Shown in pieces: positions 1,839 through 21,409 of a DNA stretch of 26,716 nucleotides; position 1 is the first letter of the stretch; each line of letters starts with the position of its first letter. The stretch comes from Candidatus Eiseniibacteriota bacterium (GTDB lineage: Bacteria > Eisenbacteria > RBG-16-71-46). Location: contig JBGAOA010000059.1 in the NCBI GenBank assembly GCA_044222065.1, positions 1-26,716 on the forward strand. Reading direction: 5' to 3'. The notes below the pieces were generated by a model that had not been told where the DNA came from, did no database searches, and saw only the letters and a program-made list of their open reading frames with translations. The position numbers and the translations under genes are program-made.

Positions 1839-2885
1839 ATGAACGTGAACGGGCTGCGGCGGGTGTGGGCGAGTGCGATCGTGATCGGGATGTTCGTCGT
1901 GTTGCCCGCGCCTTCCGCGCGCGCGAGCCTGATCGCCTACTGGCCCTTCGACGGCTGCACGACCACCGACGCGAGCGGTCACGCCTACCACCTCAGCGGG
2001 AACGGCTCCCCGACGTGCGTCGCGGGGCGCTTCGGGACGGCCTGGCAGCTGAACGGACAGGATCAGTGGCTGGACGTGGCCAACGGGGCGCCCTTCACTC
2101 CGGGTTCGCAACCCTGGACGGTCGCCTTGTGGGTTCGATCCCAGGACACCGTTCGGCCCTCGAGCCTGCTCACCTGGTACCGCTGCGGCGCGAACCCGCT
2201 TTGCTCCGGTCCGGACGCCGCCGCCTACTTCCTCTCGATGCGCGACGGGCGTGGCAATTGGTGGATCCGCGACGACCTCGCGACGACGCTCGAGTGCACG
2301 GACACGCTCGAGACCATCGCCGACGGGAACTGGCACTTCCTCGCCGCCACGTTCAGCGCGGCGACCGACTCGAGCAAGCTCTACGTGGACGCGCGCCTCG
2401 TCGCGACGGCGACCGGAGCGCTCGGCACGCTCTTCGCCTCCGGGACTCCGCTCGACATCGGCCGGACGTTCCGCACGGGCTGGGGCGTGCCCGGCGAATA
2501 CCTGAACGGCGCCGTGGACGAAGTACGCATCTACGACGAGGAACTGCCCGCGGCGCAGATCGCGGGGTTGTTCGTCGCCAATTCGACCGTGGACGTGGGG
2601 GACGGCTCGAGCCTGCCGTCTCGGGTCACGCTCCGCGCCTGGCCCAATCCCGCGCGCGGAGGACGCGTCACGGTGTCGTTCCGGCTCGCGTCGGACGAGC
2701 CCGCCGAACTCGCGCTCTACGACGTCGCGGGCCGGCTCGTGCTGCGTGAGCGACCCGCGACGCACCGGGCCGGCGATCACGATGTCGTGCTCGGAAGCGA
2801 GCGCCCGCTGCGGGCGGGGGTCTATCGTCTGCGGCTCACGCAGGGGGCGCACGCCTCTTCGCGCCCGCTCATCGTGCTCGACTAG
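1839..2885 (+). CDS. Secreted LamG-like jellyroll (concanavalin A-like) protein with a C-terminal T9SS-A/FlgD-like domain
   Basis: Signal peptide ending SARA-S. LamG_3-type motifs (LIAYWPFDG...DASG, DGNWHFLAATF, KLYVD, LNGAVDEVRIYDEEL). C-terminal WPNPARG...LALYDVAGRLV...LRAGVYRLRL...RPLIVLD. SD GGAGG upstream. Confidence 0.88.
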   Translation: MNVNGLRRVWASAIVIGMFVVLPAPSARASLIAYWPFDGCTTTDASGHAYHLSGNGSPTCVAGRFGTAWQLNGQDQWLDVANGAPFTPGSQPWTVALWVRSQDTVRPSSLLTWYRCGANPLCSGPDAAAYFLSMRDGRGNWWIRDDLATTLECTDTLETIADGNWHFLAATFSAATDSSKLYVDARLVATATGALGTLFASGTPLDIGRTFRTGWGVPGEYLNGAVDEVRIYDEELPAAQIAGLFVANSTVDVGDGSSLPSRVTLRAWPNPARGGRVTVSFRLASDEPAELALYDVAGRLVLRERPATHRAGDHDVVLGSERPLRAGVYRLRLTQGAHASSRPLIVLD

Positions 2886-5964: not shown

Positions 5965-6001
5965 CCGGAGCAGCGGGGAAGTGCATGCGTCGGGCCGCGC
6001 A

Positions 6002-8785
6002 TCAGTCGGTCAGCTCCGGTTCGCGCGCGAGCCGCACGCCACGCTCGTCGCGGATCAGTCCGCTCTCCTCGAGGTCGGGTCGCGCGTCGGCCACGAGTGC
6101 CGAAGGCGCCGTGCCGTCGGCCGCGTGCGGGTGCGCGTCGGCGGGATCGAACGTCACGACCTGGTGCCAGGTCCGCGCGGGATCGTCCGCGAACAGCAGC
6201 AGCAGGTCTCCGGCGCGCGCCGCGCGCAGGGCGAGGTCCACGGCTGCGCGCTCCTCGGGAACGATTTCGATCTGCTGCGCGGGCACGCCTTCTTCGAGCA
6301 GCGCCGAACGCAGCATGCGCGGGACCTCGTCGTGCTTGCGGCCCCTCAGCACGTCGTCGCGCCGGCAGATGTAGTGGTCGAAGTGCCCCGCGGCCGTGCG
6401 GCCGATCTCGGCGATGTCCTCGTCGCGGCGGTCGCCCGGCGCCGCGAGCACGCAGACGCGCTTCCCCCGGACCTCGAGCCGGTCCGCGAGCTGGCACATG
6501 GACGCGACCGCCGCCGCGTTGTGCCCGTAGTCCATGATCACCTTGAAGGGATGACGGTCGTAGACGTTCGTCCGGCCCGGCGCCTGGTCGAACGTCGTGT
6601 CGAACGTCCGAAGCCCCTGGCGGATGTCCTCGACCTTCACGCCCATCGCGTACGCGATCGCGGCGGCGAACATGGCGTTCTGGACGTTGTGGACCGCGCG
6701 GCCCTCGAGCGTGGCCGGGATCGCGTGCGTCCAGACGACCGGCAGGTGCAGGCCGCGGTCGAACAGCGTGATCATGAGACCGTTCACGCCCTCTTCGAGC
6801 CCGCACGCGCGGCCGCCCGCCCGGATGTGCTCCTTCACGAGCGGGTACTGCGTCTGCTGCGTCACGTAGCAGAGGTGCTTCGCGTGCGTGTGGTCCGCCA
6901 TGCGCAAGCAGCGCGGATCGTCGGCGTTCAGCACCGCCGTGTCCTGCGCGACCTCGACGACGACGCGCTTCACCTCGGCAAGCTGGTCGAGCGTCTCGAC
7001 GCCCTTGAGCCCGAGGTGGTCGCTCTGGATGTTGAGCACGGCGCCGACCGTGTTCTTCCGGTAGGCGAGTCCGCGCCTCAGAATGCCGCCGCGCGCGGTC
7101 TCGAGCACCGCCACGTCCACGCTCGGATCGCGAAGCACCATGCGCGCCGCGATCGGTCCGGTCATGTCGCCGGGCACCGTGAGCTGGCCGTTGATGTACA
7201 CGCCGTCGGTCGTCGTCAGGCCGACGGTGCGTCCGGCGAGCTTCAGCACGTGTGCGACCATGCGCGCCGTCGTGGTCTTGCCGTTCGTGCCCGTGATGCT
7301 CGCGATCGGGACGCGCGTCGGCGTACCGGGCGGGAACAGCATGTCCATCACGGGCCCGGCCACGTCCCGCGGCGTGCCCTCGCTCGGAGCGACGTGCATG
7401 CGGAAGCCGGGCGCGGCGTTCACTTCGCAGATCGCTCCTCCCGCGTCCTTGTAGGACTCGGTGATGTCCGGCGAGATGAAGTCCACGCCGCCGACGTCGA
7501 GGCCGATCGCCCGGATCGCGCGGATCGCCATCTCGACGTTGTCGGGGTGGACGATGTCCGTGACGTCGATCGCGGTGCCGCCGGTCGAGAGATTTCCCGT
7601 GAGCCGTAGCGGCACGACCGCATCGCGCTCCGGCACGGAGTCCGGCGTCAGCCCCTGGTCCGCGAGGCAGCGCTCCGCCTGAGCGTCCAGTTCGAGCCGC
7701 GTCAGAACCTTCTCGTGACCGATGCCGCGTCGCGGGTCCTGATTCGTCCGCTCGACGAGGTGGCGCACCGTGCTCGCGCCGTCGCCGATCACGCGCCCCG
7801 GCACGCGCTCGGCCGCGGCGATCAGCTGGCCGTTCACGACCAGCATGCGGTAGTCGCGACCGGTGACGAACGACTCCACGATCACCGCGCGGCTGTACTC
7901 ACGCGCGGATTCGAACGCCGTCCGCACCTGCGAGGTGCTGCGCAAATCGAGCGACACGCCGCGGCCGTGATTGCCGTCGTAGGGCTTGACCACGACCGGG
8001 AAGCCGAGCTTCTGGCCGGCGATCGCCGCCTCCTCCTCGGTCCACACGAGCCGCTGCTGCGGCACCGGGAGTCCGAGCATCGTGAGGATGCGGTTCGTCT
8101 CTTCCTTGTCGGAAGCGATCTCGACCGCGATGTGGCGGGTCTCGCTCGTGATCGTCGCCTGGATGCGCCGCTGGTACCGCCCGTGGCCGAACTGGACGAG
8201 GCTCTGGTTGTTGAGCCGGATCACCGGAATGTCGCGCGCCTCGGCGGTGTGCACGAGCGCGGCCGTGCTCGGCCCGAGCGCGCGCCGCTGCGTGAAGCGA
8301 ATGAACTCGTCGCGCGCCGATGCGAACTCGAAGCCCTCGGGGGGCGCGTTCTCGGGGCGAAGTTCGGCGGGAACGAGCGAGTGCAGCAGGTGCATCGCGA
8401 GGCGGCCCGCCTCGAGGCCGACCTCGGCTTCCTCGTACTCGTACACGACGTCGTAGACGCCGGGCGCGCCGGCCTCGCGGGTCTTGCCGAACGTGACCTT
8501 CGTGCCGGCTTCGCTCTGGAGTTCGATCGCCACGTGCTCCAGCACGTGGCCGAGCCACGTGCCGTCGTCTTCGGTGAGGCGCCGGACGAATCCGCCCGGC
8601 TCGCCGTAGGAGCACCCGTGCTCGCGCAGCCCGGGAAGTGCGCCGAGGAGCGCGTCGATGAAGCCGCCGCCGAGCTTGCGGCTCGGCCACGCCTCGAGCG
8701 GGCCGAGGTCGACCGTCAGCCGGATGACGGGGAAGTGGGCGTAAATGCTCGGTCCGAGGTAGACCGAGGAGTCGAGCAGCTTCAT
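6002..8785 (-). CDS. cphA: Cyanophycin synthetase CphA1 (927 aa)
   Basis: N domain (HGCS..GGF..RL...GTWLGHVLEHVAIELQ), LGPST, ATP-grasp domain (PVVVKPYDGNHGRGV, NLSTGGTAIDVTD, EVNAAPGFRMH) and Mur domain (ITGTNGKTTT, ETARGG, DHLG, DYGHN, GDRRD). Confidence 0.97.
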   Translation of the reverse strand: MKLLDSSVYLGPSIYAHFPVIRLTVDLGPLEAWPSRKLGGGFIDALLGALPGLREHGCSYGEPGGFVRRLTEDDGTWLGHVLEHVAIELQSEAGTKVTFGKTREAGAPGVYDVVYEYEEAEVGLEAGRLAMHLLHSLVPAELRPENAPPEGFEFASARDEFIRFTQRRALGPSTAALVHTAEARDIPVIRLNNQSLVQFGHGRYQRRIQATITSETRHIAVEIASDKEETNRILTMLGLPVPQQRLVWTEEEAAIAGQKLGFPVVVKPYDGNHGRGVSLDLRSTSQVRTAFESAREYSRAVIVESFVTGRDYRMLVVNGQLIAAAERVPGRVIGDGASTVRHLVERTNQDPRRGIGHEKVLTRLELDAQAERCLADQGLTPDSVPERDAVVPLRLTGNLSTGGTAIDVTDIVHPDNVEMAIRAIRAIGLDVGGVDFISPDITESYKDAGGAICEVNAAPGFRMHVAPSEGTPRDVAGPVMDMLFPPGTPTRVPIASITGTNGKTTTARMVAHVLKLAGRTVGLTTTDGVYINGQLTVPGDMTGPIAARMVLRDPSVDVAVLETARGGILRRGLAYRKNTVGAVLNIQSDHLGLKGVETLDQLAEVKRVVVEVAQDTAVLNADDPRCLRMADHTHAKHLCYVTQQTQYPLVKEHIRAGGRACGLEEGVNGLMITLFDRGLHLPVVWTHAIPATLEGRAVHNVQNAMFAAAIAYAMGVKVEDIRQGLRTFDTTFDQAPGRTNVYDRHPFKVIMDYGHNAAAVASMCQLADRLEVRGKRVCVLAAPGDRRDEDIAEIGRTAAGHFDHYICRRDDVLRGRKHDEVPRMLRSALLEEGVPAQQIEIVPEERAAVDLALRAARAGDLLLLFADDPARTWHQVVTFDPADAHPHAADGTAPSALVADARPDLEESGLIRDERGVRLAREPELTD

Positions 8786-8848
8786 GGCGAGCCCCGTGTC
8801 GCTGCGCGATCCCTGCGCAAGCCCAGGTGAGGAATCGGAACGTGCGAG

Positions 8849-8877
8849 AGCCTAACAGGCCCGTTCGCGAGCGTCAG
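8849..8877 (-). promoter_or_regulatory. Putative internal sigma-70 promoter for cphA
   Basis: Minus strand CTGACG-N17-TAGGCT with an extended -10 TGn, in the 141-bp cphB-cphA gap. Confidence 0.45.
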
Positions 8878-8926
8878 TTCCAAACTCCCAACCCGGACGG
8901 CGCGGCGGCGCCGGCGCCCGGGCGAG

Positions 8927-9766
8927 CTACTCGTCGCTCTCCGCGCGCACCGCGGTCGCGCGGCGCAGATGCAGGTTGTAGCGCGCGCCCTGCAGCAGCA
9001 CGTGCAGCTTGATCCCGATGAGGCTCACGGGCTCACCCTGCTTGGCGTGGTCCATCGACGAGTACTCCATCTCGCCGGGATCCACGATCGTCACCGCACC
9101 GCTGCCCACGACCTCGAGCGTGTCGTCGGGTCCGATGAAGGCCGCCGTGTCCTCGTCGAGGCCGAGCCCGTGCGCGAACGGATTGTAGGCGAGCGCCGTG
9201 AGCAGTCGCCCCAGCCGGTCCCGCTGGCGGAAGTGCTGGTCCACGACGACGCGATTGGTCAGTCCGAGGCCCGGCGCGAGTGACACCATTCCCGCGCGCG
9301 GCGTCGAACCTTCCTCTCCGAACGCGATCATGTGCTCGGAGAGGAATGCGGCGCCGGCCGAAGTGCCCGCGACGTGGACCCCGTGCGCGTTCATGATCCG
9401 GAGCGCCTTCGCGACCGGCGTGCCGCCGAGCGTCGTGCCGAGTCGCAGCTGGCTGCCTCCCGTCAGGAACACGCCCGTGGCCTTCTCGAGCACGGACAGC
9501 TCCTCTCGATCCTCGCACTGCTTGCGCGACTCGAACGGGAGCACCCACACCTTGCCGGCGCGCAGATCGCGGAACAGCGCTTCGTAGCGCCGTCCCGTGT
9601 CGCGCAATTCCGACGCCGTCGGCAGCACGGCGATGCGCGCTTCGCGGCGACCGGCCAATTGGACGAAGCGCTTGAGAATCGCCTCGTCGCCGATCTTGTC
9701 CTCGGCGCCGCCGATCGGAATGATGAAACCGCGTTCTTGCCCCTCGGGCACGCGGGATGGGCTCAC
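8927..9766 (-). CDS. cphB: Cyanophycinase CphB (peptidase S51), cytoplasmic
   Basis: IIPIGGAED, FLTGGSQ, GTSAGA (catalytic Ser), DQHFRQRDRLGRL (catalytic His plus the cyanophycin-binding D-Q-H..R.R..R pattern) and GLDEDT (Glu). GTG start with SD GAGGAGG, no signal peptide, adjacent to cphA. Confidence 0.96.
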   Translation of the reverse strand: MSPSRVPEGQERGFIIPIGGAEDKIGDEAILKRFVQLAGRREARIAVLPTASELRDTGRRYEALFRDLRAGKVWVLPFESRKQCEDREELSVLEKATGVFLTGGSQLRLGTTLGGTPVAKALRIMNAHGVHVAGTSAGAAFLSEHMIAFGEEGSTPRAGMVSLAPGLGLTNRVVVDQHFRQRDRLGRLLTALAYNPFAHGLGLDEDTAAFIGPDDTLEVVGSGAVTIVDPGEMEYSSMDHAKQGEPVSLIGIKLHVLLQGARYNLHLRRATAVRAESDE

Positions 9767-10507: not shown

Positions 10508-11776
10508 CTACGGCGCGAGTCGAACCGTCCGCCGGACGCGCTGCTCCGTACCCGCGGCGAGGCGCACGAAGTAGATGCCCGACGGCAGCCGCTCGCCGCG
10601 GTCGCTCGTGCCGTTCCACTCGACGGCGTGCGCGCCCGCGGCGCGCGACTCGCCGTCGACCAGCGTCCGCACGCGCCGCCCGCTCACGTCCAGCACTTCG
10701 AGCCGCACTTCGGCGGCGTGCGGCAGCGCGAAGCGCACGAGGGTGTTCGAGCGAAAGGGGCTCGGGATGGGCGAAGCCAGCGCGAGTCCGTCCGCGATCG
10801 CGAGCGGCTCGACGTCCGAGTTGCCGCCCGTGACAGTGAGTCGCGCGAGGCTGCTGGGTTCGATCGTGGGGCCGTCGGTCACGATACAGTCGTACACGCC
10901 GGTGTCCGCGACCGCGACGTTCGCGATCACGAGATGGTTCGTCGTCGCGCCGCTGATTCGCCCGCCGTCCGAGAGATTCACGTAGTTGCGTCGCCATCGG
11001 TACGTGAGCGCCTGCAGCCCCGGTGCATCCAGCGGGGTCGTGCCGCTCGCGCCGACGCTGAACGACGCCGTCGCGCCCGGCGCCACCGTCTGGCTCTGGG
11101 GATGCTGGCCGATCAGCGGATCGGGCACCTCGTAGAAGGCCACCTGAATGCTCGCCGCGTTCGGACTGCCGTTCTCCGTTTCGTCCTTGTAGTAGTTCTC
11201 GTAGTAGAGGAAGTAGAGGCCGGGAGCGAGACGCCCAGACTGCGTCGGCCCCGGCAGCAGCGCGAGGAGTTGGAGGTCCTGAGCCAGGCCACTCGCCAGG
11301 AACGCCGTCATACGCCTCGATGCGAAGTTCCCCTCACCGACGACGGGGTAGGCGATGTAGTTCTGCGTGCGCGGAACGTAGAACCACACGAACACGAGCG
11401 CCCCACCGCCGTTCTTCGCGCCCGGTCCATCGGCCGAGCCGAAGCCGCTCGATTGAATGCCGAACACCGAATCGCCGAAGCTGGTCGAGAGGTACATGTT
11501 CGCGAACGCGTGCGAATCGGTCGTGTCGTTGTCGGCGCTGCTGAACGGCATCCCGGCCCACGAGGCTGGGCCGGGGGGAGCGGACGACTGCTGGTCCACG
11601 ACGCTGCCCGCTTCGGACTTGGTCGTGACGCCCGCGAGGTTGCCGGACCATGGCGCGACCTCGACGCGGGCGCTTGCGAACTCGCCCACGGCGGCGATCG
11701 AGAGGAAGAGCACGGCGGCGCCGATTCCCAGCGCGATTCGAGCAGAGAGCGGCGAGGTCTGAGGACGAGCGAGCAT
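10508..11776 (-). CDS. Secreted protein with an immunoglobulin (I-set-like) domain and a C-terminal FlgD-Ig-like domain
   Basis: Hydrophobic N-terminal signal. Ig motifs HPQSQTVAPGATASFSV...LTYRWRRN...L.I.NV...DTGVYDCIVT. C-terminal PSPF..NT.VRFAL...LDVSGRRVRTL...WNGTSDRGERLPSGIYFVRL. Confidence 0.88.
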   Translation of the reverse strand: MLARPQTSPLSARIALGIGAAVLFLSIAAVGEFASARVEVAPWSGNLAGVTTKSEAGSVVDQQSSAPPGPASWAGMPFSSADNDTTDSHAFANMYLSTSFGDSVFGIQSSGFGSADGPGAKNGGGALVFVWFYVPRTQNYIAYPVVGEGNFASRRMTAFLASGLAQDLQLLALLPGPTQSGRLAPGLYFLYYENYYKDETENGSPNAASIQVAFYEVPDPLIGQHPQSQTVAPGATASFSVGASGTTPLDAPGLQALTYRWRRNYVNLSDGGRISGATTNHLVIANVAVADTGVYDCIVTDGPTIEPSSLARLTVTGGNSDVEPLAIADGLALASPIPSPFRSNTLVRFALPHAAEVRLEVLDVSGRRVRTLVDGESRAAGAHAVEWNGTSDRGERLPSGIYFVRLAAGTEQRVRRTVRLAP

Positions 11777-12019
11777 TCGGGCACTCCCGGGTGGGCGGTT
11801 CGGGCGCGGAGGAGGACGGTCGGTTCACGGTGAATGCTCCCCGCGGCCCGAAGTCACGACGACCCGGGCGATTGGGTTCCGCCGGGGCGTTCCCACCCGG
11901 CGGGAGAAGCCGGGCGGATCGCAGGGATCCCCAGGTCCCGCCCCCGGGGCGGCGGGGCGCCCCCGACGGCCCCTCGCCCCGATTTCTGCGAAATCGGCCC
12001 GGAGTTCCGGAAAAACTAC

Positions 12020-12040
12020 TTTGTTCGGCCTCCGAACATA
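12020..12040. promoter_or_regulatory. Palindromic operator-like site TTTGTTCGGCCTCCGAACATA
   Basis: Perfect TGTTCGG-N3-CCGAACA inverted repeat (12022-12038) in the AT-rich patch of a divergent intergenic region. Confidence 0.5.
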
Positions 12041-12136
12041 GGGTAGCCTCGTGCACGCAGAGGCGGTCGGGGAGGTCCCGAAGCGCAGCCCCGAGCCTCG
12101 CGAACGGGCTTTCATCATTCACAGGAGGGCAGTTCG

Positions 12137-12829
12137 ATGCTTCGTCGCTTTGCTACAGCCCTTGCGGTTCTCGCCTGCGCGGCGCTCGTTCAGCCCGCGC
12201 ACGCCGTCGACGTGACGGTCAATCCCGCCACGATCAACCTCGGCTTCATGAACGTCAGCAACCTGCCGGCGCCGGACGGCGACGGCGCCTACCAGTTCGG
12301 AAGCCCGTGGGGCTTCGCCGACCTCAACGCCAGCTACTCGGGCAGCAACCTCACGCTGAGCCCCAACACGATCGGCGATCCGAACGAGTACTGGTATCGC
12401 TGCGTCGGCTCGGCGACCCCGCCGAACTGCGGCGGTCCGGGCGCGCCCGGCAACAAGATCATGGAGGCGAACGGCTACGCCGAGATCAACGACGGCTCGC
12501 TCGCCGGGCAGACCGTGAGCTTCAGCGGAATCGTGATGTCGAACTCGCTCACGTCGGCGCACGTCGCGTACGCCTTCGTGAAGGACTTCGCAGCCGACTA
12601 CTCGTCGTTCAACGCGCAGGTGATCCCGGTGCCGGCATCGGGTTCGTTCGTCGTGTCGCTGAACACGGTGAACGATCCGTCTCGCCACGTGCAGTACGGC
12701 TTCCAGATGGTGGGCGTCAACGTGTGGGCGACGGACGTCGGGCCGTTCGGCTCGGTGACGATCGGTCCGTATCTGCCGACGCCGTCGAAGTCCGCGTCGT
12801 GGGGCCGGATCAAGACGCTCTATCGCTGA
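12137..12829 (+). CDS. Secreted protein of unknown function ending in the SWGRIKTLYR tail
   Basis: SD AGGAGG, signal peptide ending PAHA-V, strong GC3 codon bias, C-terminus PTPSKSASWGRIKTLYR*. Confidence 0.88.
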   Translation: MLRRFATALAVLACAALVQPAHAVDVTVNPATINLGFMNVSNLPAPDGDGAYQFGSPWGFADLNASYSGSNLTLSPNTIGDPNEYWYRCVGSATPPNCGGPGAPGNKIMEANGYAEINDGSLAGQTVSFSGIVMSNSLTSAHVAYAFVKDFAADYSSFNAQVIPVPASGSFVVSLNTVNDPSRHVQYGFQMVGVNVWATDVGPFGSVTIGPYLPTPSKSASWGRIKTLYR

Positions 12830-12839
12830 CGCTGCACGA

Positions 12840-12919
12840 CGCCGGGTTCGCCCGGCGAAACGACCGGGAGGTCATCTCCCGAGACTTGCGCGGCCGGGCC
12901 ACCCCATCGCCCGGCCGCG
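12840..12919. terminator. Three tandem GC stem-loops between convergent genes
   Basis: CGCCGGG-ttcg-CCCGGCG (12840-12857), CGGGAG-gtcat-CTCCCG (12865-12881) and CGCGGCCGGGC-N9-GCCCGGCCGCG (12889-12919). No U-tracts. Confidence 0.5.
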
Positions 12920-12979
12920 ATCGTTGGTGCGCGAGCGCCATCCCGACCCGGTGACCGCGATTCGATCCCGGACCGTGCG

Positions 12980-14476
12980 TCAGTCGCCCGCGTTCGCGAC
13001 CTTCGCGAGCCGCCGGATCGAAGGCGCCGCGCGCACGACCGCGGCTCTCAGTCGATCGGCGTCGGTGGCGCCGTAGTTGACGACGAGTCCGCGCCACGGG
13101 CGGCGAGCGCGGTGATAGCGCGACAGCGCCGCCGCCGAGAGCCCGGCGCGCCGCGCCTCGCGCGCGATCGCGACGTCGTCCACGCCGCCGTCGAGGTGCG
13201 CGAGAACGTGCAATCCCGTCGCCGCCGGGCCGAGCCGCACGCGATCGCCCCAGTGGGTGGCGATCGCCTCGAGCAGTGCGTCGCGATGACGCGCGTAGCG
13301 CAGGCGACTCTGGCGCAGGTGCGCGGCGAGCCTGCCCGTCGCGAGGAACTCGGCCAGCACCGCCTGGAGGAGCGCCGGCGGCGGCCCGCTCGCGATGCGC
13401 CGCGCGGCGACGAACGGCCCGACCCACGCCTCGGGCAGCACGACGTACGCGAGACGCAGCCCGAGAAGAAGCACCTTGTTCCAGGTGCCGAGGTAGAGAA
13501 CGCGCCCCTCGGGATCGAGCGACTGAAGCGCCGCGATCGGGCGGCCGTCGTAGCCGAACTCGCTGTCGTAGTCGTCCTCGAGGATCCACGCGTCGTTCCG
13601 TGACGCCCACCGGAGCAGTTCGAGCCGGCGTCCGAGCGCGAGCGGCACGCCGAGCGGGAACTGGTGCGAGGGCGTGACGTAGGCAAACATGCGCGCGCCC
13701 CGCGCGGCAGCGCACAGCGATCACGATGCCGTCGCGGTCCACCTTCACGGGCCGCAGTCTGCGCCGCGGCCGCGAAGGCCGCGTGGGCTCAAGTACCCCG
13801 GGTCCTCCACGACGACGCCGTCGCCGGGATCGAGCATCACGCGCGCGGCGAGGTCGAGCGCTTCCTGAGTGCTCGAGAGCACGAGCACCTGCTCGGCGCC
13901 GCAGTGGAGACCGCGCGAGAGCCCCGCGTGCGCGGCGATCTCGCGGCGCAGTTCGAGCGAGCCCTGCGCATCGCCGCTCACCATCCACGACTCGCCGCCA
14001 CGCCGCGCGCGGCGCGCGAGCAGGCGCGTCCATTCACGAACGGGGAAGCGCGCGAGATCGGTTGCGCTCGTCCCGACCGCGCCGTCCTGTCGCAGCTCGC
14101 TCGTTCCGAGCGCGTGCAGGCGCTGGCCCCGCGCCGAGGGTCGCGCGCGTGTCGCGCGCAGCGCCGCCGGACCCGGCGAAGGCGCGCGCTCGGCGACGGA
14201 CGCCGAGACGACCGTCCCGGCGCCGACGCGGCGCTCCAAGAAGCCCTCGGCGACGAGCTGGGCGAACGCGGTCTCGACCGTGTTGCGCGCGAGGCGCAGT
14301 TCTGCGGCGAGGGCGCGCGCGCTCGGCAGGCGTTCGCCCGGAGCGAGCCGGCCCGCGAGCACGTGCGCTCGCAGCTGGCGGTAGAGCCGGCGGTGGAGCG
14401 GACCCTCGTCCCCGGGCCGCGTGACCCAGCGCAGATCGCGGGCGAGCGCCTTCGGAACGGGAAGGGAGCGCTTCAT
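12980..14476 (-). pseudogene. MocR/GabR-family regulator (GntR wHTH plus PLP-dependent aminotransferase-like domain), disrupted by clustered frameshifts at about 13690-13790 (pseudogene or sequence error)
   Basis: The 5' ORF has LYRQLRAHVLAGRLAPGERLPSARALAAEL..ARNTV..A..QL.AEGFL and VVVEDPGY. A second frame carries RLRPVKVDRDG. The 3' ORF has YVTPSHQFPLG, WILEDDYDSEF and YLGTWNKVL..GLRLAY. Confidence 0.88.
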
Positions 14477-14494
14477 GCGCCGGACGCTACTTCA

Positions 14495-14554
14495 GAATGG
14501 CCCCATCGAGCGAGCACGAATGGCGCTTGTCGTGGGCCGCGGACGGGCTACCGT
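14495..14554 (+). promoter_or_regulatory. Putative MocR-type operator (GAATGGC direct repeats) next to a sigma-70-like promoter for the DinB operon
   Basis: GAATGGC at 14495-14501 and 14518-14524 (23-bp period), then TTGTCG-N16-TACCGT at 14527-14554. Confidence 0.5.
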
Positions 14555-14600
14555 CTCGGCGTTCCCGGACGAAGGTCCCGGCCCATCGAAGGAGACCCGC

Positions 14601-15200
14601 ATGGACACGACGATCTCGAACGCATTGGTCGCGGTGCTTCAAGGCCCCGCGGCGCCGTCGCGCGCACGCCTCGAACCGCCGGCGCCGAGCGAGTACCACG
14701 AGTACTACGCGCGCTACATCTCGCTCACTCCGCCCGGGGATCTGTCCGCCGTGCTGCGGCGCCAGGCCGAGGAGGTCGTGCGGACGTTCGGGGGACTCAC
14801 GGCGGAGCAGGGCCGGTTCGCCTACGCGCCGGGCAAGTGGAGCGTGGCGGAAGTGCTCGGCCACCTCGCCGACGCCGAGCGCATCTTCACGTTCCGGGCG
14901 ACGCACGTCGCGCGCGGCGACGCGAATCCGCTTCCCGGCATGGAGCAGGACGAGTGGATGCGCGGCGCGGGCTTCGAAGGACGGGCGATCGCGGACCTGC
15001 TGCGCGAATGGCTCGCGGTGCGCGCCGGGACCATCGCCGTCGCAGAAGGCCTGCCGGCGGACGCGCCGACGCGTACCGGAACGGCGTCCGGCCGCACGTT
15101 CAGCGCTCGGGCGCTGCTCTACATCTCGCCGGGCCACACGGAGTATCACCTCGCGATCCACCGCGAGCGATACCTCGGCGCCACGGAATGGCCGCGATGA
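14601..15200 (+). CDS. DinB/YfiT-like family protein (199 aa)
   Basis: SD AAGGAG before ATG 14601. Motifs EY..YY..YI, YAPGKWSVAEVLGHLADAERIF..R, PLPGMEQD and GHTEYHL (three-His metal triad). Confidence 0.9.
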   Translation: MDTTISNALVAVLQGPAAPSRARLEPPAPSEYHEYYARYISLTPPGDLSAVLRRQAEEVVRTFGGLTAEQGRFAYAPGKWSVAEVLGHLADAERIFTFRATHVARGDANPLPGMEQDEWMRGAGFEGRAIADLLREWLAVRAGTIAVAEGLPADAPTRTGTASGRTFSARALLYISPGHTEYHLAIHRERYLGATEWPR

Positions 15201-15817
15201 TCGGACGACCGGCGGTCCCCGCCTCGATCACGCGACGCGACCTGCTGCGCGGCGGCGCCCTGCTCGCGACGGCGCCGTGGCTGTTGCGCGCCTCGGCGGC
15301 GTTCGCCACCGGCTCCGCCGCTGCCGCCGACAGCGCCGCGACGCGGCCCGCGGGCGTGCCCGAGGGGAGCCCGGGGGAGTTCGACTTCCTTCAGGGCGAA
15401 TGGCGCATCGCCCATCGCTGGCGAAAGGACGCGGCCTCGAAGGAGTGGATCGCGTTCGACGGGCAGGCGACGTGCTGGAGCATCCTCGGCGGCATCGGCA
15501 GCGTCGAGGAGCTGCGCATCCCGGCACGCAACTTCAGCGGCATGGGGCTGCGGCTCCTCGACGTCGAGCGAAAGCTCTGGTCCGACTTCTGGGTGAACTC
15601 GAACAGCGGCGTGCTGGTCTCGCCGGGAACGTACGGGGGATTCCGCGGCGGTGTGGGTACGTTCGTCTCGGAGGACGCCGAGGGCGATCCGCCGACGATG
15701 GCGCGCGGCGTCTGGGATCGCATCACCGGAAGATCCCATCGCTGGTCGCAGGCGGTGTCGTTCGATCGTGGCGCGACGTGGGCCGAGACGTGGGTCATGG
15801 AGTGGAAGAAGGCGTGA
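15197..15817 (+). CDS. Tat-exported DUF1579-like beta-barrel protein (206 aa)
   Basis: ATGA overlap with the DinB stop. Twin-arginine motif TRRDLL plus an h-region and AFA site. Core FDFLQGEWRI.HR...W..F.G...GMGLR.......WS..W...W.QA.S.D.G.TW..TW.M. Confidence 0.8.
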   Translation: MIGRPAVPASITRRDLLRGGALLATAPWLLRASAAFATGSAAAADSAATRPAGVPEGSPGEFDFLQGEWRIAHRWRKDAASKEWIAFDGQATCWSILGGIGSVEELRIPARNFSGMGLRLLDVERKLWSDFWVNSNSGVLVSPGTYGGFRGGVGTFVSEDAEGDPPTMARGVWDRITGRSHRWSQAVSFDRGATWAETWVMEWKKA

Positions 15818-15983
15818 GGCTTGCGCCCGTGGACGCGCACGACGCGTTCCGTATCGCGCGGGGGACCCCGTGTGCGAACCGCGATGGAATCTCGAAGCAT
15901 CGCGCGCCGCGGCCGTGCTAGCTTCGGGACGGCGACGACACGCGCCGCCGCGAAATGGAGCCTTGGACAAGGACGACCCCCTC

Positions 15984-16784
15984 ATGCGCGACCGCTACCT
16001 GCTTCCGCTCGCACTCTTCGCCGCGCTGTCGTTCGGCGCAACGCCGGTGACGGCCCTGACCCTCGACACGTTTTCTACCACGCTTCCGCCCAATCCCTGC
16101 CTGCCGGTGACGGGCCAGCCGGTCGTGTTCCTCGGCCCGTTCTGCGACGGCGCCGCCTGTCCGCCGGACGCGTTCGCGGCCTGCGTCGGGCCCTCCGCTT
16201 CGCAGTCGGGCGCCGCGGGCGTCTATGCGGGCACGCGACGGGACGTCATCGTGCACAACTGGCTCGACGAGCCCACGCGCGCCTTCGTGGATCCCGCGAC
16301 CCACACGCTCCGCGCCGACTTCGGCGGCGTGTCGGAATCGCTGGTCGACGTCTTCTACGGCACGCCGTTCGACGCGACGCCCGCGGCGGACGCGCTCAAC
16401 CTCGACCTCGTCGCGCTCGGCGGCAGCGAGTTCCGCTTTCTCGTGGACGGCGACTTTTCCGATGCGAATCCGATCGGGATCGAAGTGATCGTGCTGTCGG
16501 ACGCCGCCGTCACCCCGCGTCCCTCGGCCACGGCGCGCATCACGCTCGACACGCCGGGCATCGTCAGCATTCCCTTCGTCGAATTCGTTCCGGATCTCGG
16601 CTTCACGTTCGCGGACGTGGACGACATCCAGATCACGCTCTCGAACTGCACGAACTTCGACAGCGGCTGCGGTGACCGCGAAGTTCCGCCGCTTCACCTC
16701 GCCATCGGCCCGATCGACATCGTGACCGCTCCGGTGGCGACCGTTCGCACCTCGTGGGGGAGGCTCAAGGCCTCGTACCGCTGA
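15984..16784 (+). CDS. Secreted protein of unknown function ending in the SWGRLKASYR tail (266 aa)
   Basis: ATG 15984 with AAGGA upstream and an extended -10-like TGcTAGCTT at 15916-15924. Signal peptide ending PVTA-L, Cys pairs, C-terminus PVATVRTSWGRLKASYR*. Confidence 0.85.
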   Translation: MRDRYLLPLALFAALSFGATPVTALTLDTFSTTLPPNPCLPVTGQPVVFLGPFCDGAACPPDAFAACVGPSASQSGAAGVYAGTRRDVIVHNWLDEPTRAFVDPATHTLRADFGGVSESLVDVFYGTPFDATPAADALNLDLVALGGSEFRFLVDGDFSDANPIGIEVIVLSDAAVTPRPSATARITLDTPGIVSIPFVEFVPDLGFTFADVDDIQITLSNCTNFDSGCGDREVPPLHLAIGPIDIVTAPVATVRTSWGRLKASYR

Positions 16785-16945
16785 ACGCCGGCGGCGACGC
16801 CCCTTCTACGACGCGGCTCCACTGGCTCACGAGGCCCGTCCGCCCCGAGGGCAACGGGCCTCGCCGAGCGAATCCGGCGCGCGAGGATTCGCCGAAACGG
16901 CGGCCGAGGGGGGGGGACTACTGCACACGTGGGAGCGCGGGAAAC

Positions 16946-17185
16946 GTGTCGCTCGCGTGGACCGTCCCTGCCGAGCTCGAGTCGGCGCCCGCGCGGCTCA
17001 CGCTCCACGACCTCGGAGGCCGAACCGTACGGACGTGGCCGCCTTCGGCCGGGCTCACCGCCGCTCGCCGCGTGAGCTGGGACGGACGCGACGACGCCGG
17101 CCGGCCGCTCGCGCCGGGGCTCCACGTCGCGCGGCTCGCGATCGGCGAGCGCGTGCTCGTTCGCCGGCTGATTCGAACGCGCTGA
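16946..17185 (+). CDS. Orphan, N-truncated FlgD-Ig-like C-terminal domain (79 aa); small gene or gene remnant
   Basis: LTLHDLGGRTVRT...VSWDGRDDAGRPLAPGLHVARL...RRLIRTR matches the other CTDs in the window. GTG 16946 with GGGAG at 16931-16935. No signal peptide, cargo domain or PNP motif. Confidence 0.6.
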   Translation: MSLAWTVPAELESAPARLTLHDLGGRTVRTWPPSAGLTAARRVSWDGRDDAGRPLAPGLHVARLAIGERVLVRRLIRTR

Positions 17186-17230
17186 AGGGGAACTGCCGCT
17201 GCAGGCCTCGATCGTCGAGCGCGTGCTCGT
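17139..17230 (+). repeat. 22-bp direct repeat with one mismatch, 70-bp period
   Basis: CGATCG(G/T)CGAGCGCGTGCTCGT at 17139-17160 and 17209-17230. Confidence 0.75.
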
Positions 17231-17340
17231 CGGGGCGTGAGCGAACTCGCCGGCGAGGGCGTTCGCCGCGTCGCTGAGCGAGACGACCCGCGCCGGCGAG
17301 CAGCAGCTCTCGCACGCCGGACTCGTCCATCACGCACGAA

Positions 17341-17426
17341 CGCGCCGGGGCGAACGTCGCACGCCCCGGCGCGCTCGTGGGGACGGCGCCGACGCCGATC
17401 GCGATGCCCGGCGATCGGCCGTCGGC
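17341..17426. terminator. Two strong GC stem-loops between convergent genes
   Basis: CGCGCCGGGGCG-N9-CGCCCCGGCGCG (17341-17373) and GCCGACGCCGATCGC-N8-GCGATCGGC(C)GTCGGC (17388-17426), the latter 6 nt past the stop of the 17433 gene. Confidence 0.55.
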
Positions 17427-17432
17427 CGCCCA

Positions 17433-18275
17433 TCAGCGATAGAGCACTTTCAGCCTTCCCCAGCTCGTCGTGCGCGCCGGCACCGGGTCGCCGCCCACGG
17501 TCAGGCCGAGCACCGTGTCGATTTCGTCGTCGCCGTCGTGCTGGTACGCGCCGCGTCCGCCCGCGACCACGTTCACGTAGCGGAACGTCTGACTTCCCGG
17601 GAGCTTCCACACCGTCGTGAAGCCGTCGGCGATCCAGGTGCTGATCCACCCTTCGAGGTAGACCTTCACGAGCGACGCGTACACCCAATCGGTGTTGCCA
17701 TCCGTGCCCTCGACCGTCGCGTTCGGATTGTTCGACAGGAAGACGGAGTACTCGATCGCCTCCTCGGGCAACGGCGTGTGGTCGATGATCGGGAAGACCG
17801 CGACCTGATTCGCCTGACCGCCGAGGTCCCACTTGTTCCCGGTGGCGAGATCGCCATCGCCATTGTCCTGCACCCACCACATGTCGAGGCAGCGACCGCG
17901 ATCGGCGTAGTCGGCGAGCGTCGCCGCGCCGCACGAGTACGCATAGGAAGGCGGGTCGTAGCTGTATCCCGAGCAACCTTCCACGTTCCCCACGTACGTG
18001 CTCAGCAGTCCGTTCGGCGGCATGCTGCCGCACGCCGTACCCGGCAGCGTGAACGTCGCAGCGTATGCGGACGTGTGAGGGAAGACGGCGTCGTCGAGAA
18101 TGGACGCGCTCACCAGGTCCTGCCGCGTCGCATATCCGAGCAGGGCGCGGAAGGTCTCGACCGTGGCGCCCTGCCAGGAACGCGGGTCGTTGGGATCGGT
18201 GATCGGAGCCGCGGGGACGGGACGGGGAGTCAGGAGCAGCAGCGTGACGACCGCGAACTTCGCGACGGCTTTCAT
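17433..18275 (-). CDS. Secreted protein of unknown function ending in the SWGRLKVLYR tail (280 aa)
   Basis: ATG 18275 with GGAG 5 nt upstream. Signal peptide MKAVAKFAVVTLLLLTPRPVPA-A, Asp-rich motifs (DNGDGD, HDGDDEID), C-terminus PVPARTTSWGRLKVLYR*. Confidence 0.87.
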   Translation of the reverse strand: MKAVAKFAVVTLLLLTPRPVPAAPITDPNDPRSWQGATVETFRALLGYATRQDLVSASILDDAVFPHTSAYAATFTLPGTACGSMPPNGLLSTYVGNVEGCSGYSYDPPSYAYSCGAATLADYADRGRCLDMWWVQDNGDGDLATGNKWDLGGQANQVAVFPIIDHTPLPEEAIEYSVFLSNNPNATVEGTDGNTDWVYASLVKVYLEGWISTWIADGFTTVWKLPGSQTFRYVNVVAGGRGAYQHDGDDEIDTVLGLTVGGDPVPARTTSWGRLKVLYR

Positions 18276-18646
18276 GGGGACTCCGGCGTGGGGGTGGCAC
18301 ACGGGCAGCGCGAGCGAGGCACGCAGAATACGCGAGCGCGAATCGCCATCGAGCGCAGAATCGTGCCGTGGCCATTCGCGCGGCCGGTCGTCCGATGCGA
18401 CTAAACACGCTTGCCTCGAGCAGTAGAGATCCCGGGGCCAGCACTACAACTCGGCGAAGAGCGGGACTAATATGGCGACGCAACAGCCCCGCGCGGCCGC
18501 GTGAAACCAGCAGGGCTTACGTCCCGAGCAGGTCTACCGCGTCGCCGCGTTTCGAGACCGGGCCTCGCTCCCCGAATCGTTTCGAGAGCGTTCGGTCGTT
18601 CGCTGGAGACCGTTCCCGTTCGGGCGCACTCGCGGAAGGAGCGGCC

Positions 18647-21409
18647 ATGATTCGTGCCACCGGCACCGGTGCGGTGATCCTCGCGCTCACTGCGTCCCTC
18701 GCATTCGCACAGCTTCCCGCCGTTCACGATCTCGGACTGCTGCCCGGGGATACCTCGGTGTCGCCCGCGGTCAGCGAACAGGTGGAATTCTCCGTCGCGC
18801 GCGGCGGCGACCAGTACCTCGTGGTCTGGTCGGACTATCGCGGCGCTGCCGTCCGTACGGATGCCCAGCAGAGCGCGGTCGACGTATTCGGCATCCGACT
18901 CGATGCTCAGGGCGCCCCGATCGATGCGGCACCGTTCCTCGTCGCGGGGGGCATGGGAACACAGAACCGCCCGCTCGTCGCGTGGAACGGGACCGCGTGG
19001 CTCGTCGTCTACGTTTCACAGGATCCGGTCGCCGCGTACTACGACAACGTCATGCGAGCGGTGCGCGTTTCCGCTGCGGGGCAGATACTCGACGCGACGC
19101 CGATCAGTTTTCCGCCGACCGAGTTCTCCCCGAACACCGTCGGAATGCAGGTCAGCGGACAGAACGGCCAGTGGCTCGTCACCCGCTGCATCTACCACTC
19201 GGACGGGTACGGAACGTACCTCGCGGGGCAGCGCATCGACGGAAACGGAGCCCTGCTCGATCCCGACCCCGTCATGCTGATCGACTGGATCTACGGTGCA
19301 ACCGTCTCGTTCGCGGTCAACGGCGAATACGTCGTCGGGGGACCCGATTGGACGAACTACACCGCGAGCGCGCGGCGAATCGCGCAGAACCTCCAGCCCA
19401 TCGGGGCCTCCTACTCGGTGCCGAGCCTCTCGATGGCGAGCAGTGGCAGCGAACTCTACATGGTGTGGGTGAAGGACTACGTGAATCTCGTAGGATCCCG
19501 CATGACCCCGTCGGGGACGCTGCTCAATCCGGCCGGCACCATGATCCTGCCGAACTTCACGCAGCTCGGCGAGACCACGCTCGCTCACGACGGCACGCAA
19601 TGGTGGCTCGAATACGGCGTCAACGACCAGCTCCACACCATTCGCATCAGCGCCGCCGGGGCCGTGATCGACGCGAACGGCGGGCCGCTGCTGCCCATCA
19701 CGATCGGCGGTAACGTGATGACCGCCTACGGACCGCACCTCGCAGGCCGTCCCGGGGGCGGCGTCCAGTTCCTCTGGTACGACTACCGCATCGCGCTCGG
19801 GAACGACGGCAACGTGTTCACGCTGCCCGTGTCGGCCGCAAACGTCCCGGGATCCGAACGTCTGGTTTCCACCGGCACGCGCAGTCAGCGCGGCCCGGAT
19901 TTCGCGCCGGGGCCAAACGGAACGTCCGCGATCGTGTTCGTGAGCGAAGCGGCGAACGATCGCCGCGTGCTCGTTCACTTCCTCGACGCCAGCGGCGCCG
20001 CCGTGAATGCCGAGCCGCTCCTGGTCGCGAGCGGGGCCTCGATCGGGAACGCCGGCATCGCCTGGAACGGCTCGCAGTATCTGGTCACGTGGGACGGCGG
20101 CACGACCGGCAATGCGCTGCTGCCGATCAAGGCCCGGCGAATGAACTCCGACGGCTCGTTCGTGGACGCCGCGCCGCTCGACGTGATGGCGGGGTTCGAT
20201 CCCGATGTCGAGGCGCTCGGCAACAACTTCCTGATCGCCTGCGCGCGTGCGGTCAACTTCCAGACGATCACGGCCTACATGCGCATCGTGAACGGCGCGA
20301 ACGGCGCCTTCCTCAATGCGGCCACGCCCGTCGGCGGCGGCTACGTGCGCGTGGGTCCACGCGTGAAGTCGAACGCCACGCAGTGGATAATCACGTACGA
20401 CAGCAACTGGACCCACGACTCGAGCCAATCGGATGCCGTCTATCACATCGTGAACGCCGACGGCTCGATCGTCGCCGGCGTCAATCCGACCGGCAGCTTC
20501 GGTGGAAGCGGCACGCCAGACATCGCGTTCTCGGGGAGCAAGTACCTGTTCGTGTGGCGCAGCAACTCGCTCTCGAACGCGAACAACTACGTCTCCGGTC
20601 GAGTGATCAACGCCGACGGCAGCTTCGCGACGAGCCCGTTCGTCATCGCCGAGGCGCTCGGGCGCCAGCTGCGCCCCGTCGTGGGATGGGACGGCACGAC
20701 GTTCGTCGTGGTGTGGGACGACCAGCGGAACCAACAGTCGTTCTTCGATGAGCGCACGGATCTCTATGCCGCGCGTGTCAGCACTGCAGGCGTCGTGCTC
20801 GACCCGAACGGATTCCCCGTGTGTGCCGGTCCGCAGGGAGACGCGGCGGCCGCGCTGATCACGTGGCCGGACGGCCGCGCGCTCGTCGCCTCCGCGCGAT
20901 TCTCGGTCGCTCCACCGTGGGACTCTTATCGCATCGGTCTGCACGGGACCGGTCCCGAGGCCCTCGCCGCGTCCGGAGACGCACGGACCGTGACGATGTT
21001 CCGTGGGAGCGCGCCGAACCCCCTGCGGCAAAGCACGTCGATCGCCTACGTGCTCGCGCGCGAAGCCCCGGTGTCGCTGACCGTGCACGACGTTCAGGGA
21101 CGGCTCGTTCGAACGCTGATCGCGGGCGAGTCGCGTTCCGCCGGTCCCCACGAGGTGGAGTGGGACGCGCGCGCGGAGTCCGGACGCCGTGTTTCGGCCG
21201 GAGTCTATTTCTGCGCGCTGAGTGCGGACACGAAGACGGAGGTGAAGCGCCTCGTCGTGCTGGATCCCGGTCCACGGTGGAGTGCGGCCGCAGACTCTCC
21301 GTGGCTCCCGACGACGTCACTTGCTTTCGCTCGATCCGCGGCTCCCCCGGCCGCACGCGGTCGGGCGTCGGCGACCCGCAGCTGCGGCGGCTTCGGCGCG
21401 GGGGCGTGA
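18647..21409 (+). CDS. Large secreted repeat protein (probable tandem beta-propellers) with a FlgD-Ig-like domain and a 47-aa C-terminal extension (920 aa)
   Basis: SD AAGGAG before ATG 18647 and signal peptide ending LAFA-Q. About 14 repeats of the VAWNGxxYLVVW...RxxxxG type. APNPLRQST.I.Y.L...VHDVQGRLVRTL...WDARAESGRRVSAGVYFCAL...KRLVVLD. Confidence 0.88.
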   Translation: MIRATGTGAVILALTASLAFAQLPAVHDLGLLPGDTSVSPAVSEQVEFSVARGGDQYLVVWSDYRGAAVRTDAQQSAVDVFGIRLDAQGAPIDAAPFLVAGGMGTQNRPLVAWNGTAWLVVYVSQDPVAAYYDNVMRAVRVSAAGQILDATPISFPPTEFSPNTVGMQVSGQNGQWLVTRCIYHSDGYGTYLAGQRIDGNGALLDPDPVMLIDWIYGATVSFAVNGEYVVGGPDWTNYTASARRIAQNLQPIGASYSVPSLSMASSGSELYMVWVKDYVNLVGSRMTPSGTLLNPAGTMILPNFTQLGETTLAHDGTQWWLEYGVNDQLHTIRISAAGAVIDANGGPLLPITIGGNVMTAYGPHLAGRPGGGVQFLWYDYRIALGNDGNVFTLPVSAANVPGSERLVSTGTRSQRGPDFAPGPNGTSAIVFVSEAANDRRVLVHFLDASGAAVNAEPLLVASGASIGNAGIAWNGSQYLVTWDGGTTGNALLPIKARRMNSDGSFVDAAPLDVMAGFDPDVEALGNNFLIACARAVNFQTITAYMRIVNGANGAFLNAATPVGGGYVRVGPRVKSNATQWIITYDSNWTHDSSQSDAVYHIVNADGSIVAGVNPTGSFGGSGTPDIAFSGSKYLFVWRSNSLSNANNYVSGRVINADGSFATSPFVIAEALGRQLRPVVGWDGTTFVVVWDDQRNQQSFFDERTDLYAARVSTAGVVLDPNGFPVCAGPQGDAAAALITWPDGRALVASARFSVAPPWDSYRIGLHGTGPEALAASGDARTVTMFRGSAPNPLRQSTSIAYVLAREAPVSLTVHDVQGRLVRTLIAGESRSAGPHEVEWDARAESGRRVSAGVYFCALSADTKTEVKRLVVLDPGPRWSAAADSPWLPTTSLAFARSAAPPAARGRASATRSCGGFGAGA

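Follow-up and report, generated by a model that had tools for sequence, protein, structure and literature searches.

The stretch of DNA analysed here (the window: 26,716 nucleotides, contig JBGAOA010000059.1 of the Candidatus Eiseniibacteriota assembly GCA_044222065.1) contains three genes whose predicted exported products end in closely similar peptides of 17 residues, referred to below as the tail. Gene 1 (12137..12829, plus strand) is an ATG-initiated open reading frame (ORF) of 230 amino acids with a beta-sandwich cargo of carbohydrate-binding-module type. Its predicted Sec signal peptide, MLRRFATALAVLACAALVQPAHA (12137..12205, plus strand), was recognized by a heuristic rule and has a putative cleavage site, and the gene is closed by the tail PTPSKSASWGRIKTLYR and a stop codon (12776..12829, plus strand). 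Gene 2 (15984..16784, plus strand) encodes an exported protein of 266 amino acids when read from its ATG, with an alternative TTG start at 15963; its fold was not recognized, and it is closed by the tail PVATVRTSWGRLKASYR and a stop codon (16731..16784, plus strand). Gene 3 (17433..18275, minus strand) encodes an exported protein of 280 amino acids whose cargo behaves as a choice-of-anchor domain, followed by the tail PVPARTTSWGRLKVLYR and a stop codon (17433..17486, minus strand).

An earlier reading of this DNA from its letters only (the sequence-only reading) had proposed that the three tails are a sorting or anchoring signal shared by unrelated secreted proteins. The tail sequences and positions that it gave match the DNA exactly, and all three genes start with signal-peptide-like N-termini. 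The cargo proteins are indeed unrelated, each being a singleton when the tail bearers of the genome (45, see below) were compared all against all by BLAST with their tails removed, and no Pfam or NCBIfam family was found on any of the three genes. Likewise, the claim that conservation is at the protein level holds: the tail-coding DNA is only 0.59-0.65 identical between pairs of window tails and the codons differ at 3/7, 4/9 and 6/10 of the residues that the pairs share, which argues against a DNA repeat and indicates that conservation acts on the peptide.

The tail across its own genome

The genome (4.21 Mb, 71.8% GC, 131 contigs, of which the window is C105) was searched in six-frame translation with a strict form of the motif, [ST]WGx[ILVM]Kxx[YF]. 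This search returned 43 matches, 41 of them followed by R and a stop codon and 2 by two residues and a stop codon, so that all 43 lie 1-2 residues before a stop and none (0/43) is internal. Composition predicts 0.019 matches by chance and the reversed sequences gave 0; the tail is therefore far beyond chance in its own genome. Two additional tails finish in WR, which brings the number of tail bearers to 45. The own-genome logo is a conserved block of 17 residues, [PA][TV][PA][ATS][RK]Rx[TS]WGx[VIL]KxLYR, whose W, G, K and last R follow from the pattern used for selection. A cysteine stands 17-24 residues from the C-terminus in 27 of 43 tails.

Proteins bearing the tail are strongly enriched in signal peptides (37/39 complete tail ORFs versus 664/1557 control ORFs, Fisher p=9e-12), as judged by a heuristic of our own that scans from any start, was applied alike to the controls and involves no trained predictor. 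The motif is not confined to one family, since the 45 bearers fall into 31 BLAST clusters (11 members in one, 3 in another, 2 in each of two more, and 27 singletons). Pfam domains were recognized in 15 of the 41 bearers outside the window, including NHL propellers, Laminin_G_3, GEVED, cupredoxin with LTD, DUF642, PPC and DUF4114, among others; the remaining 26 gave no Pfam match. NCBIfam models for choice-of-anchor V (73.3 bits, cut-off 42) and choice-of-anchor X (35.7 bits, cut-off 25) each match one bearer, and choice-of-anchor C reaches 87.4 bits on a third bearer, under its cut-off of 120. No described sorting-signal model in NCBIfam 20.0 or Pfam-A matches the tail (0/44 bearers), in line with the suggestion that the signal is undescribed. 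All the checks by which the sequence-only reading could have been refuted thus came out on its side. The bearers are small, with a median of 251 amino acids and only 2/45 longer than 400.

The cluster of 11 is a paralogous family of tail proteins of about 250 amino acids with N-termini of the form ...APAINLAWNDC..., arranged partly in tandem arrays on contigs C25 (7988-10390), C15 (43-1115), C38 (62809-65474), C14, C81 and C117. The GC content at third codon positions (GC3) of this family is mostly 0.64-0.83, under that of most genes of the genome. A separate observation concerns an ORF of 709 amino acids on the minus strand of contig C131 that ends in ...RASWGARFAFAALFTGGLAGFVRRRRSA, where a tail-like SWG start is followed by a hydrophobic helix and RRRR; this terminus looks like a hybrid of both types of signal.

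Exchange with known sorting signals and structure of the tail

Homologues of genes 1 and 3 place the tail at a junction where a known sorting signal or a hydrophobic anchor is found in other proteins. The gene 3 cargo ends in ...DGDDEIDxVxGLTxxGxP, and C-terminal modules are swapped directly after that junction. Among the 120 homologues listed, 8 carry strict tails, 1 a variant and one more (P0254) a tail recognized by eye, and the closest of those listed are the ones that continue with the tail. A further 60 are PEP-CTERM-like by pattern (VPEP, hydrophobic helix and basic cluster), about 61 by hand count have a precomputed match to PF07589, and 2 carry the source name MYXO-CTERM; 49 are classed as 'other' by pattern, many of which appear PEP-CTERM-like by eye. 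The gene 1 cargo family comprises 965 matches at E<=0.001, none with a given name. Of the 120 members examined, 83 have the canonical tail by pattern, and in 3 a hydrophobic helix followed by RMRQR, a replacement that no curated model matches, stands at the junction of the tail; the remainder have degenerate variants (e.g., SFGxVKSLFR) or are truncated. Look-alikes of gene 1 in the atlas with PEP-CTERM or IPTL-CTERM ends are leads only. Across the three window families, the swaps involve PEP-CTERM, MYXO-CTERM or a hydrophobic anchor and never the C-terminal domain (CTD) of type IX secretion. The tail thus occupies the slot of known surface-sorting signals in homologues from other phyla, which makes it likely that the tail is an address or anchor label.

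The gene 2 family, collected by an exhaustive HMMER search on the cargo, comprises 92 representative clusters and extends to about 30% cargo identity; 64/92 carry the strict tail, 12/92 a variant and 0/92 a CTD. In 71 full-length rows, no stretch of 10 residues is better conserved than the final one, whose level is reached by 0/214 cargo windows; W and K are fixed there by the choice of rows, which had been picked for a tail-like end. Retention of the tail to such divergent cargo is taken as evidence suggestive of selection.

The tail shares with PEP-CTERM, MYXO-CTERM, IPTL-CTERM, GlyGly-CTERM and LPXTG signals the arrangement in which a signal peptide and a variable cargo precede a short, conserved module at the C-terminus. 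Like PEP-CTERM-type signals, it is present in many copies per genome on unrelated proteins, and it shares cargo domains with them, as in the gene 3 family, and is found on choice-of-anchor domains V and X. In contrast to these tripartite signals, however, it has no PEP, Cys or LPXTG motif and no transmembrane helix, and the curated models match 0/44 bearers. Compared with PEP-CTERM (TIGR02595/PF07589), there is no PEP in the own-genome logo and no PF07589 match; just 10 residues come after the linker, K and R being scattered among them, and the modelled helix spans 8 residues; and the PEP-CTERM module exceeds the tail by about 10 residues. Exosortase (PF09721) also does not co-occur with the tail.

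An AlphaFold2 model of gene 1, built on the gene 1 alignment (mean predicted local distance difference test score, pLDDT, 90.9), shows the signal peptide as a helix (residues 2-16), a beta-sandwich cargo at about residues 24-210, a linker in coil conformation (residues 211-221, pLDDT ~70) and WGRIKTLY (residues 222-229) as a short terminal helix outside the cargo domain (pLDDT ~59). The best matches among solved structures are beta-sandwiches of carbohydrate-binding modules (2c4x_A, Z 8.7, root-mean-square deviation 3.0, 124 aligned), a likeness that would hold at the level of the fold only, the Z score being middling. The position of the modelled tail outside the beta-sandwich is counted as an indication that it may be an appendage. 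The sequence-only reading had further proposed a basic amphipathic helix. A terminal helix is modelled and the last 10 residues have a net charge of +2.4, but the helical hydrophobic moment of 0.47 is ordinary for the composition (shuffles 0.37 ± 0.17, with 29% of same-composition shuffles reaching it) and the strand moment is similar. Hence, the amphipathic detail of that proposal is weakly supported.

Distribution, type IX secretion and candidate readers

A strict DNA pattern for the tail is present in 41/41 relatives with 4-46 copies each, and its backwards control gave 0 in 41/41. Across the phylum (most likely Candidatus Eisenbacteria, the label borne by relatives of the genome's proteins), the tail is found in multiple copies in 140/151 genomes, with one backwards match in 1/151. 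A further survey, a codon-biased scan with each species represented by one genome, returned at least 129 loci, which by hand tally include 38 from Eisenbacteria, 5 from Fibrobacter(aceae), 3 each from Latescibacterota, Krumholzibacteriia and Gemmatimonadota, a few with other labels and 69 without a taxon label; one of the loci is a chance ORF of 22 amino acids. Counts over whole records gave 38 tails in a Fibrobacteraceae metagenome-assembled genome (MAG), 24 in a Latescibacterota MAG, 38 in one complete chromosome, 31 in a Limnocylindria MAG, 25 in a Verrucomicrobiia MAG and 1-4 in five other records. It should be noted that errors of binning or naming may account for some of these MAG labels. 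Tails number 31-46 per genome in family f3, and strict tails only 0-4 per genome in family f10 (32 genomes). The genomes G063, G103 and G107 have zero tails independently of f10. In three zero-tail f10 genomes, a relaxed pattern found just noise-level W-G tails (the positive controls gave 63 and 29), and homologues of genes 1 and 3 were not found in five zero-tail f10 genomes with the queries used.

The organisms that carry the tail also carry a type IX secretion system (T9SS). The genome of the window encodes SprA (89 bits) and PorU (469.5 bits, cut-off 420) followed by PorV (PF19572), and holds 216 ORFs with a classical T9SS CTD. PorV was detected in 150/151 genomes of the phylum and PorU in 5/5 tail-rich MAGs with other labels (4 above cut-off), and all tail-rich genomes examined have a T9SS. 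Like the type A CTD (TIGR04183/PF18962; here FlgD_ig-like PF13860), the tail lies at the very C-terminal end of proteins of surface type that are exported through Sec, and both signals end in a basic/hydrophobic/basic pattern. Tail genes moreover cluster with CTD cargo genes (25/33 tail loci lie near them versus 16.7 ± 2.9 at random placement, with 7/2000 trials reaching 25). This association is not specific, as the tail-poor family f10 has the machinery too: five f10 genomes with zero tails have PorU (5/5 above cut-off), SprA (4/5) and 29-40 mostly CTD-type matches each, and the core T9SS is thus not sufficient to explain the tail.

The two signals also differ in themselves. A CTD is about 85 residues long and the tail 17, and the model of the tail shows a coil and a short helix, with neither a beta-sandwich nor a three-stranded sheet. 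No model for CTDs, which span about 70-100 residues or in short forms 43-55 and have motifs B, D and E, matches it, and the CTD profile built from the genome itself found 0/45 tail ORFs at E<1e-4, with a best score of 8.6 bits when filters were off. The tail is carried by small proteins only, the median of CTD ORFs being 824 amino acids versus 251 for tail bearers (Mann-Whitney p=1e-15; the 824 and the test refer to stop-to-stop ORF lengths), and it is nearly missing from f10, which keeps T9SS and CTD cargo.

In the window, classical T9SS cargo genes lie at 1839-2885 (plus strand), 10508-11776 (minus), 18368-21409 (plus) and 24634-26700 (minus), each with a FlgD_ig or Por_Secre_tail domain; their types are Laminin_G_3, Ig domains, a protein of 1013 amino acids with no assigned type and an M28 peptidase. 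The CTD of the gene at 18368-21409 (~21011-21238) is not terminal, the frame remaining open for about 57 residues further. An intact orphan CTD of T9SS type (16940-17185, plus strand) lies inside ORF 16754-17185, about 150 nt downstream of gene 2 and in a different frame, and neither a signal peptide nor a cargo precedes it (FlgD_ig E=1.6e-5, 25.2 bits, cut-off 27; own-genome CTD profile 57 bits; GC3 0.86). That this CTD is the relic of a replacement of CTD by tail is not supported, given that a downstream CTD is found at 1/45 tail genes versus 28/~1500 random stretches; the relatives of gene 2, all without a CTD (0/92), do not support such a replacement either. Elsewhere in the window, a cyanophycin block on the minus strand (4204-9766) holds a cyanophycin synthetase of 927 amino acids (Cyanophycin_syn N-domain, ATP-grasp and Mur ligase), a Mur-ligase-type protein of 586 amino acids and a Peptidase_S51 (cyanophycinase-type) gene, and a regulator of the GntR plus aminotransferase type seems to be split at 12980-14476 (minus strand). 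In ORF 13745-14476, GntR is accompanied by no more than the first ~90 positions of Aminotran_1_2, and Pfam matches nothing in the next ORF, 12980-13690; either a frameshift or a genuine truncation may lie behind the split.

Several candidates for a protein that reads the tail were evaluated. The genome has a gene of the exosortase family (PF09721, 205 bits, contig C95:6757-7509, plus strand) and 0 PEP-CTERM-like C-termini by pattern. Exosortase was rejected as the reader, as its profile across the 151 genomes does not track the tail: it is present in 108/151, in 0/6 of the tail-rich f3 genomes, yet in the zero-tail f10 genomes G053, G060, G080 and G117 (216-243 bits). A PorU-like paralogue on contig C38 (Peptidase_C25, propeptide and FlgD_ig), 5 kb from three tail genes, was rejected because it is also found in 4/5 zero-tail f10 genomes (103-174 bits), and PorV-family copy number was rejected as a correlate, the 1-5 copies per genome bearing no relation to the number of tails. 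PorP/SprF (PF11751) was absent from 13 f10 genomes (0/13) and gave 1 sub-threshold match in 13 relatives, a comparison that is uninformative, the control genomes being silent too. The recurrent neighbours of 33 tail loci in the genome are only T9SS-CTD cargo, ABC ATPases and Ser/Thr kinases. A complex predicted for PorV (residues 24-315) with the last 45 residues of gene 1 scored 0.00, which counts neither way.

Another observation comes from a MAG that bears the label Gemmatimonadota and holds just one tail gene, of Glucodextran_C type. This gene belongs to a same-strand run in locus L181 (G162:C2:128000-147335), at 10893-19168 on the plus strand, in which it is followed by a protein with a CTD-like end, a protein of 305 amino acids, a protein of 487 amino acids and a CBM48 protein. 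The C-terminus of the CBM48 protein (...GRFTF) resembles that of an outer-membrane barrel, and the 305-residue neighbour has a weak match to a PorV-like barrel (hhalign E=0.055). This run is a lead only.

Possible roles of the tail

The tail has the features of C-terminal sorting signals in general, being strictly C-terminal, carried by signal-peptide proteins with unrelated cargo and exchangeable with other signals. Its position, export, portability and exchange in a common slot make a portable sorting or anchoring tag likely. A literature search (supplements outside its scope) found no paper on the motif or the concept, and we consider the tail to be a real, widespread and apparently unpublished candidate for such a C-terminal tag.

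The reading that we favour, which we put forward tentatively and at slightly under an even chance, is that the tail is a portable tag on Sec-exported, mostly small binding-type proteins, whose free terminal peptide would be read by one shared envelope protein so that the cargo is held at the cell surface. Sec export and folding would come first, after which a flexible Pro/Thr-rich linker would present ...[ST]WGx(I/V/L)KxLYR-COOH. Free C-termini are recognized by PDZ domains, and pilins of the chaperone-usher type have conserved C-termini. The tail resembles PDZ ligands and these pilin C-termini in that a short motif with a penultimate aromatic residue is set at a constant spacing from the carboxyl end, but unlike them it is appended to complete, unrelated domains. 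As in those systems, recognition probably includes the carboxyl end, because the spacing to the stop never varies beyond 1-2 residues. A protein would be the partner, because tails on unrelated cargo of the same genome have a flavour in common that is specific to the lineage. At positions -14 to -12, the tails of the genome are basic in 36/43, acidic in 0/43 and neither in 7/43; other MAGs are mostly uniform there, with 'PVE' or 'TPxR'. Tail classes agree in 27/36 pairs of dissimilar cargo within genomes versus 0.55 when shuffled (23/2000 shuffles reach it, p ~0.01; computed without the own genome). Docking, whether non-covalent or following some processing, would then keep the cargo at the envelope.

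Several points weigh against this reading. The reading is drawn from sequence, so that localisation, binding, cleavage and retention of the tail proteins are at most predicted, and the enrichment in signal peptides depends on our own heuristic instead of a trained predictor. The fixed distance to the stop fits the reading of a terminal peptide and is no proof of it. The agreement in flavour is modest without the own genome, and shared ancestry or the spread of a tail module within a genome could partly account for it. No reader emerged among the candidates tested (exosortase, the PorU-like paralogue, PorV copy number and neighbours), and no dedicated neighbour gene recurs at 33 tail loci in the own genome. 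Lastly, f10 is a single clade that is also without the two cargo families searched, and may have lost the cargo rather than the reader. The reader is not an exosortase, and the core T9SS alone does not account for the tail.

Other explanations have to be weighed against the same data. The tail could be a minimal type IX signal that mimics the last strand or strands of a CTD. It would dock on the PorV shuttle, or else on a barrel of the PorV/PorQ type, and deliver its cargo to the surface by way of SprA, with cleavage by PorU or without it. The clustering of tail loci near CTD genes (25/33), the shared basic/hydrophobic/basic ends and the presence of T9SS in every tail-rich genome examined, with PorV in nearly the whole phylum (150/151) and PorU in all five tail-rich MAGs of other labels, speak for this explanation, as does the run after the single tail gene with its CTD-like end and weakly PorV-like barrel (E=0.055). 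Shrunken signals also have a precedent, since PMC11969387 describes short CTDs of 43-55 amino acids in Prevotella intermedia and cites the finding that the last 22 residues of Hbp35 are enough for secretion and attachment of green fluorescent protein. We nevertheless regard a minimal type IX signal as unlikely, though worth serious consideration: CTD models find no tail (own profile 0/45, Pfam and NCBIfam 0/44), the window families never swap with a CTD, five f10 genomes without a strict tail retain PorU, SprA (4/5) and CTD-type matches, the PorV copies (1-5) do not follow the number of tails, and cargo sizes differ sharply (median 824 versus 251 amino acids).

It is improbable, in our estimate, that there is no protein reader and that a basic amphipathic helix tethers the cargo by sticking non-covalently to anionic lipid or lipopolysaccharide. 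Membrane-targeting helices are known in MinD, FtsA and PBP5, and a net charge of +2.4 in the last 10 residues, the placement of W, I/V/L, L and Y on one helical face as read from the sequence, the AlphaFold2 helix at residues 222-229 and the hydrophobic anchor that replaces the tail in 3/120 gene 1 members would all suit such binding. That helix, however, has a pLDDT of only ~59 and an ordinary moment (0.47, with a similar strand moment), and both the motif (64 strict and 12 variant of 92) and the distance to the stop (43/43) are stricter than lipid-binding helices usually need. The lineage flavours common to unrelated cargo, together with the fixed stop distance, instead favour a co-evolving partner that reads a free peptide over generic lipid binding. 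The invariant lysine might alternatively be a site of covalent attachment through which an envelope transpeptidase links the tail to peptidoglycan or glycan, with Braun's lipoprotein, which ends in ...YRK, as a loose parallel. The tail ends in YR, its slot is otherwise filled by signals leading to covalent anchoring, and K stands at -5 in 71/71 gene 2 relatives and 62/62 rows of the gene 1 alignment, albeit fixed by the selecting patterns in the own-genome set and the gene 2 rows; yet the lysine is not terminal and a candidate enzyme was not found beside tail genes, which leaves covalent attachment very improbable. Least credible of all is a tag for quality control or turnover, with no address, read by a periplasmic PDZ protease: the fixed stop distance fits the reading of free C-termini by PDZ domains, but such a tag would explain neither the exchange of the tail for surface-sorting signals at one junction nor its presence on choice-of-anchor domains.

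With a docking tag read by a shared envelope protein as the favoured reading, the tail may, though we would not call it probable, represent a third architecture of bacterial sorting signal, neither transmembrane tripartite nor folded CTD: an unfolded terminal peptide of 17 residues with its own envelope machine in Eisenbacteria and allied uncultured phyla, which would mark surface proteins by the dozen in each cell. New envelope machines have been reached repeatedly by way of C-terminal sorting signals, as in the cases of sortase, exosortase, rhombosortase, myxosortase and the T9SS attachment complex. Here the tag is found on roughly 1% of genes in many uncultured soil and sludge bacteria. Naming the tail would improve the annotation of 'hypothetical' proteins (76/92 representative clusters of the gene 2 family carry it) and would define the surface proteome of these phyla, and a peptide of 10-17 residues provides a handle for finding the machine that reads it.

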